Source: a virus
UHGV virus genome: UHGV-0180488
Strand: one strand, 5' to 3'
DNA length: 10,275 nt
The notes under the pieces: generated by a model
What the model saw: only the letters and a program-made list of their open reading frames with translations
Told to the model about the DNA's origin: nothing
The model's database searches: none
Program-made: the position numbers and the translations under genes
Shown here: positions 3,145-9,931 of the stretch, one piece after another
How the letters are laid out: the number at the start of each line of letters is the position of its first letter
Position numbering within the stretch: the stretch's first letter is position 1

Positions 3145-4173
3145 TCATGAATCCATGAGGCGGCTATTGGCACCTGCTGTCACACCGCCACGACGAAGAT
3201 AACGCATCAGTGTTTCGGGCTTCTTCCATGTACCTTCCTGCATAATTTCAACCAAAGACACCTGTTTTTCAGCCATATCTATGGCGGCACCAACACGCGC
3301 ACTGTGGCCTGTCCACGTCCGGTAACGGCCTTTATTGGGGGTGGCATCACTCTTACCCAGCAGCGCCCAGGCGTCACTGAAAATCTTCTCCATCGCGGGC
3401 ACGGTTAATGGCGTGGTGGTGATCCGCGCTTTGTTGCTCCGGTGTACTGGCGGGAAAAGTATCGCATCCGGGTGCTCACGTAGTCCGGACGCGTCCAGCC
3501 AGTCATTGAGAACCGCAGTTGTCCAGCGGGAGAGCACCTTATCAAGTCCGGCGGCGGTCGTGATGGTTTTGGTGTGGGATACGTGAAGCGTTACAGTGTC
3601 ACCAGTCTGTTCCAGATCGCGAACACGCACGCGGGACATTTCAGCCATACGCAACAGGGTATTGTAGGCCAGGAACAGAAAAGCCCGGTTGCGCAGATCC
3701 ACCAGCCTGTCAGAGCGGGAGAGCAGCACGTCGAGCAGTTTCAGGTCATCCCAGCGCAGGGGCACTGCCTGGCCTGTGCGTTCGCCTTTTTCGGTTGCAG
3801 CTTCGCGCCGGATGCGCCGCATCGCCAGGGATACGCTTTTGTCATCAGAGAGTTGCGGCAGTCCGCATTGTGACAACAGCATATTGAGCATGGCGTAATG
3901 CTTTTCAATGGTGGTTGAAGCCAGATCCGCATCATGCAGTTGAAGCAGGTATTCGCGGGCAGCTTCCGGGGAGATCGGAAACCACGCAAGACCACGAGCG
4001 TGGCACCATCGCGCCCAGGAGTGAAAGACCAGGCGCAGATCGCGCAGTGTATTAGGTGAGTAAGCACCCTGGTCATTAAGGAACTGCATGAAATTTTTGG
4101 CGGCTTCCTGGTACTCAGCACCAATATCACGAAGAAACATGCCAGGATTACCGGAGATAATAAGTTTACTCAT
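3145..4173 (-). CDS. dre: Cre-family tyrosine site-specific recombinase, Dre-like, 342 aa
   Basis: The translation aligns along its length with P1 Cre as I recall it (e.g. AYNTLLRMAE vs AYNTLLRIAE; GHSARVGAAIDMAEKQVSLVEIMQEGTWKKPETLMRYLR vs GHSARVGAARDMARAGVSIPEIMQAGGWTNVNIVMNYIR, with the catalytic Tyr context conserved), at roughly 40-45% identity by eye. A rox-like site rather than loxP lies 153 bp upstream, which is why I call it Dre (the Cre homologue of phage D6). ATG at 4173-4171 with AGAGGTGA upstream. Confidence 0.92.
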   Translation of the reverse strand: MSKLIISGNPGMFLRDIGAEYQEAAKNFMQFLNDQGAYSPNTLRDLRLVFHSWARWCHARGLAWFPISPEAAREYLLQLHDADLASTTIEKHYAMLNMLLSQCGLPQLSDDKSVSLAMRRIRREAATEKGERTGQAVPLRWDDLKLLDVLLSRSDRLVDLRNRAFLFLAYNTLLRMAEMSRVRVRDLEQTGDTVTLHVSHTKTITTAAGLDKVLSRWTTAVLNDWLDASGLREHPDAILFPPVHRSNKARITTTPLTVPAMEKIFSDAWALLGKSDATPNKGRYRTWTGHSARVGAAIDMAEKQVSLVEIMQEGTWKKPETLMRYLRRGGVTAGANSRLMDS

Positions 4174-4316: not shown

Positions 4317-4344
4317 ATTATATACTAACTTTAAATAATGCCAA
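4317..4344 (-). promoter_or_regulatory. Putative sigma70 promoter for dre, with its -35 inside the rox-like site
   Basis: On the minus strand: -35 TTGGCA (4344-4339), 16-bp spacer, -10 TATAAT (4322-4317). Predicted start near 4310, inside the GATC pair at 4302-4305 and 4310-4313. Sequence-only prediction. Confidence 0.35.
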
Positions 4345-4357
4345 TTATCTAAAGTTA
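4326..4357. other. rox-like recombination target site for the Dre-like recombinase
   Basis: TAACTTTAAATAAT (4326-4339), spacer GCCA (4340-4343), ATTATCTAAAGTTA (4344-4357). This is the rox site as I remember it (TAACTTTAAATAATGCCAATTATTTAAAGTTA) with one difference, C instead of T at 4349, which makes the arms imperfectly symmetric. Flanking C (4325) and G (4358) extend the palindrome. Confidence 0.85.
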
Positions 4358-4509
4358 GAAAGGGAGAAAATTTTTTTGAAAAAAAGGATCAAGTGATCAA
4401 AAAAGAAACCGTGCTATTAGTGGTAGTTAGACGCTTAAACCCAGGATTTTGAAGAAGGTTTTCTAAGAAGAACAATAAAAAATTCCATGTTGATCCTTTA
4501 CTCATCGTG

Positions 4510-4569: not shown

Positions 4570-5607
4570 ATGAATAAAAGAACAATCGAGAAAGAGTACA
4601 AACAGTTCCGGTCTGTTGCTGAACGTTGGAAGGAGCTGGTGGTATCAAACTCAGTGTTCCATGACACCAGTTATAACGGAGAGGAATTCCGTCATGTTGC
4701 TTTGACACATGATCCAGACGTCTTGAAAGAAGCCGAAGAATGCCTGGTCGCCTGGAAAGCATTTGTGGACGTATGCCGCAATGCTGGTGGGAAAAAGCTG
4801 AATATCGTTGAGACAGTATATCTTCCGATCCCATTCATCATTGAGGACACGAATCAAAGTACACACATTGTCGTATCTACAGCTTCGACTACCAGAACGT
4901 TCACTCGCGAGAGTTTGCTGAAAAAGTACGATAATGTCATTAAGAAAAGTAAAAAAAGCCCTATCTTTTCTCAGGTCGTAGATGCCCTTGAAAAAGAAAG
5001 ACATTTCTTTGCAATGGAGCCGGAAGGCGAACTCTATCGCGCACGAAAAGATGACTATACCGATGTGGTGCTGACCTCTGATCTCACATCTGACAACACC
5101 CTGTCTCGCTTAAGAGTGGGTGCGCACGGGGCGCTGGTGTTCTCACGCAATAAAGAATTGAAGATCCCTGTGGTTAATAACGTAGATGAACGCCGTAGTA
5201 TTACCGTTTATTCCGGTGTGAAGCCTATCCCTTGTGGCCCGCTGGGCGATTTTAGTCTGTATCGTGTGAACGACATCACCAGGAGTCAGCCAAGCTATGT
5301 GGCTAAGGCCTATATTCTGCGTAGCATTGAGTCCAGAAACCTGAGTTTTAACAACAAAAGCCAGGCGCTTCTGAACTCTACGCCGCCTGAGATCCTCCAG
5401 GTCATTGAAAGAAAGGTGAACGCGGCGAGAGAGGCGCTTATCCGCCTGGAAAAAATGGACATGGAGTTGATTGATGTCATGATGGCATCAGGCGATGACC
5501 TGACAGGTATCCGGCTGACCGATGCACGCAAGAAATACGGCAAAGAAATTGAGGAACGATACGGATACACGTTCAATCAAACAATGTCAGCAACAAAACT
5601 TCGTTAA
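4570..5607 (+). CDS. c1: C1-like phage repressor of lysogeny, 345 aa
   Basis: Position matches the P1/D6 layout (convergent with pacB, divergent from the lox/rox-recombinase unit). Local matches to P1 C1 as I recall it: LNIVETVYLPIPFII vs LNIPKTILYPVPNIL, VNNVDERRSITVYSGVKPI vs INGEFEKAKFSLYDSIEPI, SLYRVNDI vs KIYRLADI. Overall identity is low (perhaps ~30%) and the protein is about 60 aa longer than P1 C1. Confidence 0.7.
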   Translation: MNKRTIEKEYKQFRSVAERWKELVVSNSVFHDTSYNGEEFRHVALTHDPDVLKEAEECLVAWKAFVDVCRNAGGKKLNIVETVYLPIPFIIEDTNQSTHIVVSTASTTRTFTRESLLKKYDNVIKKSKKSPIFSQVVDALEKERHFFAMEPEGELYRARKDDYTDVVLTSDLTSDNTLSRLRVGAHGALVFSRNKELKIPVVNNVDERRSITVYSGVKPIPCGPLGDFSLYRVNDITRSQPSYVAKAYILRSIESRNLSFNNKSQALLNSTPPEILQVIERKVNAAREALIRLEKMDMELIDVMMASGDDLTGIRLTDARKKYGKEIEERYGYTFNQTMSATKLR

Positions 5608-5633: not shown

Positions 5634-7139
5634 TTAAATATCCAGTTCCGGCATTTCGACATCCGCCAGCACTTTATCGCGCAAGGCCAGCATTTCAGCC
5701 GTAGCCTCTTCATTTGCAGGGGTGTAATCCACCAGCCAGGCAAAACAGTAGGTATCCCAACGGTCTGGGGAAGGAATATTCAGTTTTTGCCGCATGACTT
5801 TCTTTTCTGTCATTTTAAGCGTGCCGTCTTCCTTCAACTCATAAGGAATACGTGATGCTTGCGTGGCAGTCTTCTCGCTGGAATCAAGCCGCATCCGACC
5901 GCTCATAATCGCATCCCTTGCAGAAAAGTTGGCGAAGGTACGCTGATTTGCATAACGTTTTTTGTCCTCTTTCGAGAACATTGGGGATCCCCACCGTATA
6001 CGGACAGGGCTTGCACCACGGCGTACCAACTGATCAGCCGTTGCCGCGCCGATACCGTCTGAGTCAACAGCAATGGTGATATTGGGGTAACGTTCCTGAG
6101 TGCATTCGTTATAGATAAAGTCGGCAAACATCAGCGGATCCATTGTGCCCGGCATTTCCAGAATCTTAAACGGAACAACGCGGCGTTTTTCACGCTTCCC
6201 TGATACTTTCATGATATTCAGGACAGACTTATCGCGACCATTACCAACGTCAGCGGTAGCCACCCAGCCCCAGTCTTTTTCCAGCAACACCTTGCGCCGT
6301 GCGGCGCGATCACATTCGTCACGACCAAGCAAGTAACCGTTAATTTCTCGCGGGAATTGCCCCAGCACCTTAACCATGTACTCAAGGGAATCCCGCCCAC
6401 CGTATTCAATCAGTTTTTCCTTGATAAATTTAGGCTCAACAAACGGCGACTCTTCCGAATTCAGAATGATCGATGTCCAGGTGCCATTCGGATTATGTTC
6501 GCTTTTCGCATTTTTATGGTGTGAATCATAAAAATAACCACTCGGACGCGTCGGCTGTGACATCATGAGCATACGGTTATCCTTCTCCGTCAATGCCCCG
6601 GTTAAGATGTTTATCGCTTTGTCAGAGATACCTGATGCTTCATCAAGTATCAGGAATAAGTGTTTGGCGTGCTCGCCCGCCAGTGATTCCTCGTTACCAG
6701 GCCTGTAGCCTTTACAAAGCACTTCCCAGATCCCCTTACGTGAGCGTTCGTAAAAAACCGTGTCAGTGAGGATAAAGTATTGTTTAAGCCAGCTATGCCG
6801 TCTGACAGCGTTCTGCCAAAAGATTTTGACGTACTTAAATACACCACTTTTGACCTGGCTAATTTTGTTTGCGACGATGACAACACGCGCATCGGGGAAC
6901 AGAATCATATAGATCAGCAACAGCATGGCTGTCAGGGATGATTTACCCGTACCGTGGCCTGATGTGACCGTTGTTCTGCTGCCAATATCCTGAACGGAAT
7001 TAATGATTTGCTCTTGCTGGTGGGATGGTATCAAGCCAAATAACTCAACAACCGCAAGAGCAAAGTTTAGTCTGTATTTAATCGACAATTGCCGCCAGCG
7101 TGGGTCGCTGGTTACGCACTTAATCTTCCCTCCCGCCAT
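5634..7139 (-). CDS. pacB: Terminase large subunit, PacB-like, 501 aa
   Basis: Walker A TSGHGTGKSS and Walker B LFLILDEASG in the N-terminal half, followed by an acidic nuclease-like region (IAVDSDGIG). Size is similar to P1 PacB. ATG at 7139-7137 with AGAGGAAG upstream, 2 nt after the stop of the upstream gene. Confidence 0.85.
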   Translation of the reverse strand: MAGGKIKCVTSDPRWRQLSIKYRLNFALAVVELFGLIPSHQQEQIINSVQDIGSRTTVTSGHGTGKSSLTAMLLLIYMILFPDARVVIVANKISQVKSGVFKYVKIFWQNAVRRHSWLKQYFILTDTVFYERSRKGIWEVLCKGYRPGNEESLAGEHAKHLFLILDEASGISDKAINILTGALTEKDNRMLMMSQPTRPSGYFYDSHHKNAKSEHNPNGTWTSIILNSEESPFVEPKFIKEKLIEYGGRDSLEYMVKVLGQFPREINGYLLGRDECDRAARRKVLLEKDWGWVATADVGNGRDKSVLNIMKVSGKREKRRVVPFKILEMPGTMDPLMFADFIYNECTQERYPNITIAVDSDGIGAATADQLVRRGASPVRIRWGSPMFSKEDKKRYANQRTFANFSARDAIMSGRMRLDSSEKTATQASRIPYELKEDGTLKMTEKKVMRQKLNIPSPDRWDTYCFAWLVDYTPANEEATAEMLALRDKVLADVEMPELDI

Positions 7140-7141
7140 CG

Positions 7142-8464
7142 TCAGTCTTCCTCTGGCGGGGTAATAGCAATATCGTCGTAAATATCAGCCGTAGCGGATG
7201 GGTCAAGCTCCAGTCCTTCATCATCGGCTTCAAACTCACCAGCTTTTCTTTCACCGTTGGCGTCGTAATCCCCCAGGCCTAACTGGTCAACTACTCTGGC
7301 AACATCTTCACGGCGCTGTTTGAGCCACTCTGAAAGCTCTGCTTTTTGTTTGGCGTACTCTTCGGCTTCACGCTGGATCTGGTCATCATCAACATCACTG
7401 CTGTCAACTACTGGCGGTTCCAGAAGCGTGATAGCTTTCGCCGCACGCGCAGCCAGGATTGCAGGAACACTTACCCCTTGCCGCTCGATGTATTCCGCAA
7501 CACCTATATCGTCCAGTTCTTCGCGCTCGCGCATACGTATAGCGGTTGCAATAACCCTGGCGGCGCGTGCATCAGCGCCAAGACGATAGTCAATCTCTTT
7601 GCTACGTTGCTCTGCCTGTAGGCGTGCAATGTCCAGTTTTTCTCTGGCCTCAGCCTCTTTAAATGCCTGCTGCCGCGCCCCCTGAATCAGTTTTTCCTGG
7701 CCTTGCTGGAGTTTTTGCTCTGTCTGATAAATGGCTGCGAGGCGGCTGATGAAGTCGTTCATGTAATAGGCGGCATCCTGCATGAGGCCGCAGAGACGCT
7801 GGGCCGGGTGTATCCCTTCCGGCTCGCCATCGCCTAAAATATCAATTTCTTTACGTAGCCGTGCCGCCTCCATGTCTACAATTGACTGGTATTCTATGGC
7901 GCGTTCCTGAGCCATCAGGATGGCCTTACGCAGATGTTCAGCCGCACCGTTCTGCATCATTTCACGGGCGACATTTTTCGACGGCAAGGTGGCACATTGT
8001 GCTGATTCGCCGTGGATCATTTGCGATGATCTCTGACTTGAAGATGCCTTTTTATCCTTTTCTGGGATCATTTTTGCTTTTTTATCGGCAAATGATCCCT
8101 TTGATAAATCCACTAACTCACTGTTATCAATGGGCTTATCAGCATGATCCGCGTTACGCTTGCGTGGCATCTCCCTGAATTGACTTGTCGCCGGCTTATT
8201 GTCAGTTTTTGTAAATTCTGATTCTTTTCCGCTCGCTCGTTGCTGTTTTTTTGTCCCACCAGCACGGGGTTGCTGGCGTGTTCTGGCGCGGTTCTTTGAT
8301 GGTTTAACTTTGGCCTGCACCTCATTTTTTTTCATATTGAGATGCTTTCTGGCAGTGTTGAAACTAAGGCCATTTTGTTCACAGTATTCCTTTACCGTGA
8401 TCCCTTTTTCCTCTTTCAGCGCCAGAAACCGGGCACGATGCTCTTCCCAATTAACCAGTGTCAT
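7142..8464 (-). CDS. pacA: Terminase small subunit, PacA-like, 440 aa
   Basis: N-terminal HTH-like segment (ITVKEYCEQNGLSFNTARKHL), a basic low-complexity linker, a coiled-coil-like middle and an acidic C-terminus. It lies immediately upstream of, and is coupled to, the large terminase gene, and contains a GATC cluster like the P1 pac site. Called by synteny and architecture, not by strong sequence recall. Confidence 0.65.
   Translation of the reverse strand: MTLVNWEEHRARFLALKEEKGITVKEYCEQNGLSFNTARKHLNMKKNEVQAKVKPSKNRARTRQQPRAGGTKKQQRASGKESEFTKTDNKPATSQFREMPRKRNADHADKPIDNSELVDLSKGSFADKKAKMIPEKDKKASSSQRSSQMIHGESAQCATLPSKNVAREMMQNGAAEHLRKAILMAQERAIEYQSIVDMEAARLRKEIDILGDGEPEGIHPAQRLCGLMQDAAYYMNDFISRLAAIYQTEQKLQQGQEKLIQGARQQAFKEAEAREKLDIARLQAEQRSKEIDYRLGADARAARVIATAIRMREREELDDIGVAEYIERQGVSVPAILAARAAKAITLLEPPVVDSSDVDDDQIQREAEEYAKQKAELSEWLKQRREDVARVVDQLGLGDYDANGERKAGEFEADDEGLELDPSATADIYDDIAITPPEED
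8015..8149. other. Candidate pac (packaging cleavage) site: cluster of five GATC hexamers inside pacA
   Basis: GATC at 8015, 8028, 8066, 8094 and 8146 (five in 135 bp against about 0.5 expected), in TGATC/GATCA contexts that resemble the TGATCA/G elements of the P1 pac site. The rest of the 1.3-kb gene has only two GATC. Confidence 0.45.
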
Positions 8465-8853
8465 ACAGCAACACCACGGCGTTTAATGGCTTCATTCCAC
8501 AATCTGTTAGCCATGTTCACCAGTTCACGGCGTTCCGTCTGATTCTTGCCAGTGATAAATCGGTTGGAATTCTTTACAAGCAGGCGGTCAAACTGCGGTG
8601 TACGTCCGCGTACCTTAAACTGATACCCGTCAAGGCCATGAAGCCAGTATTTGCGCGGGTATACGCGGTCATCGCGCTCACAAATAGCCCTGCTCGAACG
8701 AACAAAGTGACGGATGATATTGTTAACATTGACACGTGATACGTGAAGATGAGGATATTTATCTTTGGCGAGGGTGGTTATCTCAGTGACTGTAAGATAA
8801 CAGTCTTTCCTGATCATGATATCCGCTATTTCAGCACTGCTGATTTTATCCAT
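8461..8853 (-). CDS. Hypothetical protein, 130 aa, first gene of the packaging operon; possibly an Lpa-like late activator by position only
   Basis: ATG at 8853-8851 with GGGGGGA upstream; its stop overlaps the pacA start (ATGA). In P1 the late-promoter activator gene lpa precedes pacA, but I cannot confirm sequence similarity. Confidence 0.55.
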   Translation of the reverse strand: MDKISSAEIADIMIRKDCYLTVTEITTLAKDKYPHLHVSRVNVNNIIRHFVRSSRAICERDDRVYPRKYWLHGLDGYQFKVRGRTPQFDRLLVKNSNRFITGKNQTERRELVNMANRLWNEAIKRRGVAV

Positions 8854-8933
8854 TAAATCCCCCCGGGCAGAGAATGACCAGGGGTATATTAATCAGTATG
8901 TTAATTGTTTATAGACTGTCTAAAGGCGAGTAG

Positions 8934-8963
8934 TGTTAGAAATTACAGGTTTTATTTCTAACA
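8934..8963. promoter_or_regulatory. Inverted repeat TGTTAGAAAT-N10-ATTTCTAACA upstream of the packaging operon; candidate operator
   Basis: Perfect 10-bp arms at 8934-8943 and 8954-8963 with a 10-bp spacer, containing two inverted copies of the GTTAGAAA 8-mer. It lies between the stop of the 131-aa gene (8964-8966) and the 130-aa gene start (8853), upstream of TATAAA and TAATAT hexamers on the minus strand. Confidence 0.4.
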
Positions 8964-9356
8964 TTACCATCTGCTTAAACGAACAATATGTCTTACTTTT
9001 GCGGACCACTTCCCTTTGGTTTTGTTGACTACCGCCTGCGCCAGCCTTAACTCGCTTTCATAATCAGCCTTACGCCCATCGTTTTCCGACAGCAAATAGC
9101 CTTCAACTTGTGGTACGGTCAGATAGTCCTGATCAACATTAAGTGGTCCTGTGGGTGCTCTGAACGGCGTTAGTTGCTTTGCGTTCCAGTTAAATCGAAT
9201 ACGTACGTCACGAACGGCAAGGGTTGCATACCCATGCACGGTACTTTCGTAACCTAGTTTTGTTTCGCCTGCATGACATGACGTGATTTTGCAGTCAAGC
9301 AACTTCCAGTCCATTTCCTTAGCTTGTGCAACTGTTAGCTTCTGCTCTTCGTACAT
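8964..9356 (-). CDS. Hypothetical protein, about 130 aa
   Basis: ORF on the minus strand. I prefer the ATG at 9356-9354 (GGGAGG 7 nt upstream) to the TTG one codon earlier used in the track. The ATG overlaps the TGA of the upstream gene by 1 nt. Confidence 0.6.
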   Translation of the reverse strand: MYEEQKLTVAQAKEMDWKLLDCKITSCHAGETKLGYESTVHGYATLAVRDVRIRFNWNAKQLTPFRAPTGPLNVDQDYLTVPQVEGYLLSENDGRKADYESELRLAQAVVNKTKGKWSAKVRHIVRLSRW

Positions 9357-9931
9357 CAAAATGCCTCCCAGTCAGTTGCCATAATGTCTACGCTGCTGGC
9401 AAACCAGTCAGAACGTGCTTGCAAAGCACCATCCATCATTACCAGACGTGGAAGCACGGAGACTTTGACGCCCTTTTGCACGTTGAATATTTCTTCCGGA
9501 AGAAAGCTAACCATCTTGTCCTTACTTTCAATGCAGCCGGGTTCAAGTGATATGTACTGTCCTTTAGGCCAGGATTTTCGGCGTGCGTCTAATCCGTTCA
9601 TTAACCAGTGGATTGCGACAGAAAAAGGAATGTTTGCTTTGGCAATGGACAGTCCACCAGCGACAGCCTGTTTATGAAACTTGAGGAGTTTTACAGCGGC
9701 CTCGGCAAGCGCAACATAAGGTTCTGGATGGACTTCGGTAAGGCTGCATCCACGAACTGTTACTGTCACAGCATGGGAATCGCCTTCTGATGCCGTTTCG
9801 ATGTTGACCCCTTTGTTTGACAGTGCGTGATACAAAGCGTCACCCATGCATGACCAGCGTTCATTGCGTCCAATGAACTCACTCAGGATGCGATCCTGCT
9901 CTGTATACGTTGCATTAGTCAAAACAGTCAT
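9356..9931 (-). CDS. Hypothetical protein, 191 aa
   Basis: ORF with a strong ribosome-binding site (AAAGGAGAGG before the ATG at 9931-9929), coupled to the next gene. No motif recognised. Confidence 0.65.
   Translation of the reverse strand: MTVLTNATYTEQDRILSEFIGRNERWSCMGDALYHALSNKGVNIETASEGDSHAVTVTVRGCSLTEVHPEPYVALAEAAVKLLKFHKQAVAGGLSIAKANIPFSVAIHWLMNGLDARRKSWPKGQYISLEPGCIESKDKMVSFLPEEIFNVQKGVKVSVLPRLVMMDGALQARSDWFASSVDIMATDWEAF

Follow-up and report, generated by a model that had tools for sequence, protein, structure and literature searches.

A probable bivalent C1-type operator upstream of the lpa-pacA-pacB genes of a D6-type phage-plasmid

The closest described counterpart of the locus presented here is the C1 repressor network of bacteriophage P1. 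The P1 C1 protein binds at 22 scattered operators, and repL and lpa are among the genes under its control (PMC8546580). In the P1 record the operator at lpa, Olpa (formerly Op94), is monovalent; it is a single 17-bp site (ATTGCTCTAATGTATTG) which lies 2 nt after the stop codon of pdcB and 87 nt before the lpa ATG, and which overlaps the -35 of the promoter Plpa (P94). Alongside such single operators P1 also has Oc1ab (formerly Op99a,b), an inverted pair of asymmetric operators that forms an imperfect palindrome. The P1 pacA gene has a late promoter of its own, LPpac, which lies between lpa and pacA, and no late promoter is annotated for P1 lpa. No operators or promoters are annotated in the record of phage D6 (MF356679). 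Full-text literature searches for the motif described below and for D6-like operators returned nothing relevant, the D6 genome paper being outside their reach.

We analysed a window of 10.3 kb (this is the whole stretch of DNA, 10,275 nucleotides), which is part of a D6-type phage-plasmid belonging to the P1 family. The region round the inverted repeat studied here is 98-99% identical to plasmids of ~80 kb from Shigella dysenteriae and E. coli and 91% identical to plasmids of E. fergusonii. Phage D6 shows ~73% identity to the region and was reached only by a distant-mode search; megablast of the region against phage records gave no match. Along the minus strand the order is Tad2-like gene, 131-aa gene, repeat, lpa, pacA and pacB. 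The features of this neighbourhood are the following.

9356-9931, minus strand: Tad2-like gene, first in the gene order towards lpa
8964..9359, minus strand: 131-aa gene, an open reading frame annotated in relatives as a hypothetical protein; its stop codon abuts the repeat
8934..8963, no strand: perfect 10-bp inverted repeat with a 10-nt spacer, core of the proposed bivalent operator
8461..8853, minus strand: lpa homologue (late promoter activating protein, 130 aa), Pfam BPP1_LPA PF25716, E 2e-48
7142..8464, minus strand: pacA homologue, its start overlapping the lpa stop codon
5634..7139, minus strand: pacB / terminase large subunit homologue, 3' of pacA
4570..5607, plus strand: c1-like prophage repressor gene (345 aa), adjoining the tyrosine recombinase gene
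3145-4173, minus strand: Dre/Cre-like tyrosine recombinase gene, next to the c1-like gene

The lpa product is 32% identical to P1 Lpa. The 345-aa C1-like protein is 69% identical to D6 C1 and is a distant homologue of P1 C1 (24% identity, E 4e-8); its match to the NCBIfam family phage_rep_C1 (NF041318) has an E-value of 8e-7 over 234 residues, far below the family cutoff. The initial annotation of this DNA had placed the repeat between the stop codon of the 131-aa gene and the 130-aa/pacA/pacB genes, and the ORF coordinates together with the Pfam match agree with this placement. It had called these genes a packaging operon; pacA and pacB are indeed present, but the operon is lpa-pacA-pacB, and the site stands in the first place before the gene for the late-gene master activator.

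Several further features were seen in the window. A Tad2-like C-terminal domain (Thoeris anti-defence 2, PF11195) is found in the products of 9356-9931 and 1070-1738, both on the minus strand, with E-values of 5e-11 and 2e-22 for the two proteins; the RefSeq names for proteins with these domains are 'MW1434 family type I TA system toxin' and 'DUF2829'. Chi (GCTGGTGG) is present at 12 sites in 10.3 kb against 0.33 expected (for example at 80, 1012, 4635, 7016, 8256 and 9654), and words containing Chi are the most over-represented 9-mers in the whole related plasmid and in D6.

The interior of pacA contains five GATC sites in 135 nt (8015-8149). These belong to (A)TGATCC / GGATCAT(T) repeats in both orientations round an A-rich core, and a perfect repeat at 8064-8073 / 8090-8099 is part of the same cluster. 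The cluster resembles the P1 pac site, which is made up of methylatable hexamer repeats inside pacA, and by this analogy it is a candidate pac site. Adjoining the recombinase gene 3145-4173 is a rox site (4325-4358), an inverted repeat with 15-bp arms (CTAACTTTAAATAAT-GCCA-ATTATCTAAAGTTAG) that differs by one mismatch from the site annotated in phage D6. This repeat has GTTAG ends and was considered as an operator; it was rejected, being a rox recombination site without an operator score.

The inverted repeat upstream of lpa is perfect, as had been reported. Its arms, TGTTAGAAAT at 8934-8943 and ATTTCTAACA at 8954-8963, are fully complementary and are separated by a spacer of 10 nt. They extend to 14 nt (8930-8943 / 8954-8967) with one mismatch. 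The repeat abuts the stop codon of the 131-aa ORF and lies ~80 nt upstream of the lpa homologue. Taken alone, it is weak evidence of function, since 19% of Markov-simulated windows contain a perfect inverted repeat with arms of 10 bp or more and a gap no longer than 20 nt (mean 0.22).

The arms of the repeat are two inverted copies of an asymmetric motif of ~19 bp, aaTGTGTTAGAAAaYTAAt, which recurs throughout these genomes. The word GTTAGAAA is found in 5 copies in the window, where 0.31 are expected, and in 15 copies in NZ_CP026808, a related plasmid of 79.7 kb, where the expectation is 2.4; the flanks are similar each time. In the Shigella plasmid and in phage D6, TGTTAGAAA is the top over-represented 9-mer after the Chi-related words. 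We built a 19-nt position weight matrix (PWM) from 13 D6 copies only (consensus AATGTGTTAGAAAACTAAT). At a threshold of at least 12 bits this matrix has 17 matches in the 98.8%-identical Shigella plasmid, compared with a mean of 3.3 and a maximum of 7 in simulations, and 4 matches in the window, compared with a mean of 0.44. At a threshold of at least 16 bits, 15 of the 17 matches in D6 fall in the non-coding 10.2% of the genome (binomial P ~1e-12), although an AT-rich motif would show some enrichment in AT-rich intergenic DNA even without function. The putative operator copies in the window are as follows.

8949..8967, minus strand: distal half-site at lpa, GTAATGTTAGAAATAAAAC (lpa-coding strand), 14.7 bits; overlaps the TAA of the 131-aa gene
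8930..8948, plus strand: proximal half-site at lpa, GTAGTGTTAGAAATTACAG (plus strand; ending in AATTTCTAACAC on the coding strand), 12.4 bits
4538..4556, plus strand: single copy 14 nt upstream of the c1 start codon, 25.9 bits
3125..3143, plus strand: single copy just 3' of the stop codon of the Dre-like recombinase gene, 18.8 bits

The copy next to c1 has orthologous sites in D6 (195-213) and in the Shigella plasmid (74383-74401), and presumably serves the autoregulation of c1. The orthologous site of the recombinase-side copy in D6 is at 89944-89962. At 12.4 and 14.7 bits the two half-sites at lpa are the weakest of the set, compared with 16-26 bits elsewhere.

The motif is found upstream of c1, lpa, ref, repL, the icd/antirepressor module, rdgC/hrdC, a pdcB-like gene and pmgS, as well as downstream of the recombinase gene, and its positions are kept between D6 and the Shigella plasmid. 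It is present as a single copy at c1, repL, icd and pmgS and 3' of the recombinase gene. At four loci two 19-mers are inverted and abut exactly, so that one occupies x..x+18 on the plus strand and the other x+19..x+37 on the minus strand. One of these is the site at lpa and the others are listed here.

ref, plasmid 8829-8866: bivalent site, an almost perfect 38-bp palindrome
pdcB-like gene, plasmid 6936-6973 and D6 80705-80742: bivalent site
rdgC/hrdC, plasmid 17580-17617 and D6 64112-64149: bivalent site

The PWM scan gives four bivalent sites of identical geometry and at least nine single sites. Because the asymmetric unit also occurs singly elsewhere, the repeat upstream of lpa is read as two monomer-type sites placed back to back. 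The initial annotation had described a dimer-binding site; a site for a protein is indeed favoured, but its unit is the asymmetric site of ~19 bp and not the palindrome.

Conservation at lpa was examined in 29 IMG/VR contigs, D6 and plasmids, which gave 20 distinct sequences, of which 18 are in the alignment. The pattern TTAG-N18-CTAA is invariant in these 18 distinct relatives, with no indels between the cores, and is kept across relatives that are ~72% identical; the same 18-bp distance separates the two cores at all four bivalent sites. Conservation of the proximal half-site is good throughout the relatives, where it reads TT(T/A)TCTAA(C/T)A, and its orthologue in D6 scores 21.9 bits. In the distal half-site (T/C)(G/A)TTAG is kept and the remainder is degenerate in most lineages; the perfect 10-bp repeat is therefore confined to the clade of the window, and the second site may be weak or lineage-specific. 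Within this clade (90-99% identity) the arms vary at one inner position, and the spacer and flanks at several. The region upstream of lpa in D6 (MF356679, 4582-4661) has the site at the same position and with the same TTAG-N18-CTAA spacing, and also carries -35-like and late-like motifs downstream; its distal half-site is degenerate (GCATTAGGTAT, also given as ATTAGGTA), and the perfect repeat of the window's clade is absent. The initial annotation had let its reading turn on conservation of the arms in related elements. This conservation is seen for the cores and for the proximal half-site, but for the most part not for the distal one.

The D6-like group is a common one. Its region upstream of lpa is present in 99 of 5,426 complete E. 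coli genomes. It is always on a plasmid, almost all of these being ~90 kb in size, and one of the 99 genomes carries the window's own clade (>95% identity). D6-like phage-plasmids are also found in Shigella and E. fergusonii, and they have been described in Salmonella too (PMC6799933).

The proximal half-site is the positional equivalent of P1 Olpa. In both cases the gene order is the same and the operator is directly 3' of the stop codon of the upstream gene, ~70-90 nt ahead of the lpa start; the proximal half-site of the window starts 95 nt before the ATG. Both sites also belong to a dispersed network that covers c1, ref and repL (PMC8546580). C1 control of P1 lpa, the parallel drawn at the outset, is the best analogy. 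There are differences in arrangement. Olpa is one site over the -35, whereas the window has two inverted sites with a TGTTAGAAA core, which lie ~10 nt upstream of the best -35-like hexamer. An inverted pair of asymmetric operators alongside single ones is a feature that the window family shares with P1, in the form of Oc1ab; however, the 17-mers of Oc1ab overlap by 6 bp and span 28 bp in total, whereas the D6-type 19-mers abut and span 38 bp.

The operator sequences themselves differ. Even with 4 mismatches allowed, the P1/P7 operator consensus (ATTGCTCTAATAAATTT) is not matched anywhere in the window, and conversely a 10.8-kb part of P1 with 7 annotated operators gives no match to the D6-type consensus. 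Unrelated operators fit the low similarity between the two repressors. Since the sequences differ, the two repressors would differ in specificity, and D6-type and P1 phages are presumably heteroimmune. Other traits of a P1-type network are found, namely a dispersed, mostly intergenic motif, a regulon of c1, lpa, ref and repL, both monovalent and bivalent sites, and a repressor of the C1 family. The element would be a new member of the known P1-type kind of operator, with its own sequence and half-site geometry.

Two promoter-like elements lie between the repeat and lpa.

8895..8922, minus strand: candidate sigma-70 promoter of lpa, TAGACA-16-CATACT, 9/12 matches
8884..8908, minus strand: late-promoter-like motif ACAATTAACATACTGATTAATATAC, 13.5 bits with the late-promoter PWM

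TAGACA-16-CATACT is the only promoter-like match in 8700-9100, a count that is no better than chance in shuffled sequences. Its -35-like hexamer, the best conserved one, begins 11 nt beyond the repeat in the downstream direction, and relatives have TTGACA, TTGCCA or TTACCA in the corresponding columns of the alignment. TAGACA-16-CATACT is a candidate promoter of lpa. The scan predicts no strong promoter, and the operator does not clearly overlap a good one. The hexamer TATAAA (8913-8908) was also considered as the -10 of lpa, in which case the -35 region would be covered by the proximal half-site, an arrangement like that of P1; TATAAA has no -35 that could serve it, its conservation fails in one clade, and it was kept only as an alternative. 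In the lpa leader (8857-8884, minus strand) a conserved CCCCTGG...CCCGGGGGG stem could pair with the lpa ribosome-binding site; its fold of -16.5 kcal/mol is no better than that of shuffled sequences (z -1.3) and is a hint only.

The late-promoter-like motif is a weak copy and lies 26 nt downstream of the repeat and 30 nt before the lpa ATG. It is of a type found de novo in the regions upstream of late operons in the plasmid and in D6, which share gAAAT(A/C)ACA(A/C)ACT(G)-N3-5-TAnnnT, and which together account for essentially all head, tail and lysis operons; this motif is unlike the P1 -22 box. The late PWM was trained on eleven of these regions (mat, 26, 7, upfC, 23, pmgB, R, lydA, ddrB, prt and the lysozyme gene). 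Strong copies, with scores of 19.8-29.5 bits, number 12 in the plasmid; the twelfth is not a training sequence, scores 21.0 bits and is on the strand opposite the lysozyme promoter. After these 12, the motif at 8884-8908 ranks next in the plasmid as a whole, and it is the best non-training match on the coding strand. A match this good would arise by chance at a rate of ~0.0008 per 100-nt upstream window. A late-like motif is present at the same position in all relatives with scores of 9-19 bits (9.0 in D6-like sequences, 14.5 in one clade and 19.1 in another). In P1 pacA is preceded by LPpac, whereas in the window lpa and pacA overlap and the late-like motif is upstream of lpa; because of this arrangement the motif may drive late, Lpa-dependent expression of the whole lpa-pacAB operon. 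Its position before lpa suggests autoregulation by Lpa together with late expression of pacAB.

Most likely, the repeat serves the D6-type C1 prophage repressor as a bivalent operator ('O-lpa'). The match between this regulon and the P1 C1 network leads us to infer that C1 is the binder, and the c1-like gene itself, 3.3 kb from the operator, is preceded by one of the strong copies of the motif. In the plasmid prophage state the C1-like repressor would occupy both half-sites (8967-8949 and 8930-8948), with one C1 molecule on each if it behaves as P1 C1 does. Bound C1 would keep lpa-pacA-pacB silent by interfering with the weak sigma-70 promoter just downstream, by blocking read-through from the upstream 131-aa and Tad2-like genes, or by both. 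Such a block is plausible because the terminator scan of 8700-9100 found no terminator between the 131-aa gene and lpa. Inactivation of C1 would then allow Lpa to be made and the late operons to be turned on, and the weak late-promoter-like motif at 8884-8908 may reinforce the expression of lpa and the pac genes.

A different emphasis, which we regard as rather unlikely, is that the double operator acts mainly as a repressor-dependent roadblock or insulator and, with an Lpa-responsive promoter, gives two-stage bistable control of lpa-pacAB. Were this so, a C1-gated ignition of lpa-pacAB would be followed by self-amplification through Lpa, and the site would form a boundary, with the Tad2-like/131-aa cassette and its possible expression in the lysogen on one side and lpa, as master switch of the lytic cycle, on the other. 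Two-stage control of this kind would be absent from P1, where the annotated late promoter belongs to pacA and not to lpa.

The motif could also be a real dispersed operator whose binder is not the C1 homologue; a host nucleoid protein or a second repressor of immunity might take its place, with lpa still being repressed. The case for C1 is drawn from analogy and from the content of the regulon, the C1-like protein has the low identity to P1 C1 noted above and falls below the NCBIfam equivalog cutoff, and the operator sequence is unrelated to the P1 consensus. We nevertheless judge another binder improbable. The strong copy 14 nt upstream of the c1 start is present in all three genomes and fits autoregulation, the regulon of c1, lpa, ref and repL is that of P1 C1, and no other repressor-like gene was noticed in the window.

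Still less probable is that the repeat acts in RNA, by folding into a hairpin with which the 131-aa mRNA ends and which would weakly terminate transcription, be cut by an RNase or stabilise the 3' end. Its location directly 3' of the stop codon would suit such a role, and a modest stem of 10-14 bp is possible, with a predicted energy of -11.6 kcal/mol and a z of -2.6. However, the stem is AU-rich, there is no U tract 3' of the repeat on either strand, and the repeat was not flagged by the terminator scan of 8700-9100, in line with the initial view that it is not a terminator. It has no match to an Rfam family. In the 18 relatives consistent pairing is limited to the TTAG/CTAA core, most sequences leave several stem positions unpaired, and two-sided changes in the stem are no commoner than in shuffles. 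From these results on pairing, fold and Rfam, the signal is placed at the level of DNA; a hairpin would also leave unexplained the single copies of the motif at many other sites.

The initial annotation had further compared the repeat with inverted repeats in the late promoters of P1, so that the packaging operon would have a late promoter in which the repeat is the element responding to Lpa. The 130-aa Lpa is encoded immediately downstream, and in P1 the late promoter LPpac precedes pacA. An Lpa-dependent late promoter has a conserved box ~22 nt ahead of the start and a -10 but lacks a -35, and stands before morphogenesis and lysis operons. The comparison is not supported by the distribution of the arm motif: none of the head, tail and lysis operons is preceded by it, and the gAAAT(A/C)ACA(A/C)ACT motif is found there instead. 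The P1 -22 boxes (AAGTTACTT and ATGTGACTT) are absent at the repeat, and the -22 box GT[TG]ACTT is not enriched in these genomes. In addition, the centre of the repeat is ~60 nt from the likely transcription start and not at -22, and a separate late-like motif is already present at 8884-8908. We therefore give this explanation very little credence. The remaining explanation, a functionless chance repeat in AT-rich intergenic DNA, could appeal to the frequency of similar perfect repeats in simulated windows, but it is effectively refuted by the PWM scan and the non-coding enrichment, the motif being genome-wide, its two-site layout identical at three other genes and its cores kept across relatives.

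The reading of the repeat as a C1 operator does not overturn what has been learned from P1, and the site is the counterpart that would be expected of a known P1 control site. For the D6-like group, the operator aaTGTGTTAGAAAaYTAAt, its regulon and the late motif together form a testable map of the lysis-lysogeny circuit. The operator, the repressor and the late promoter could also be used as parts, as those of P1 are.
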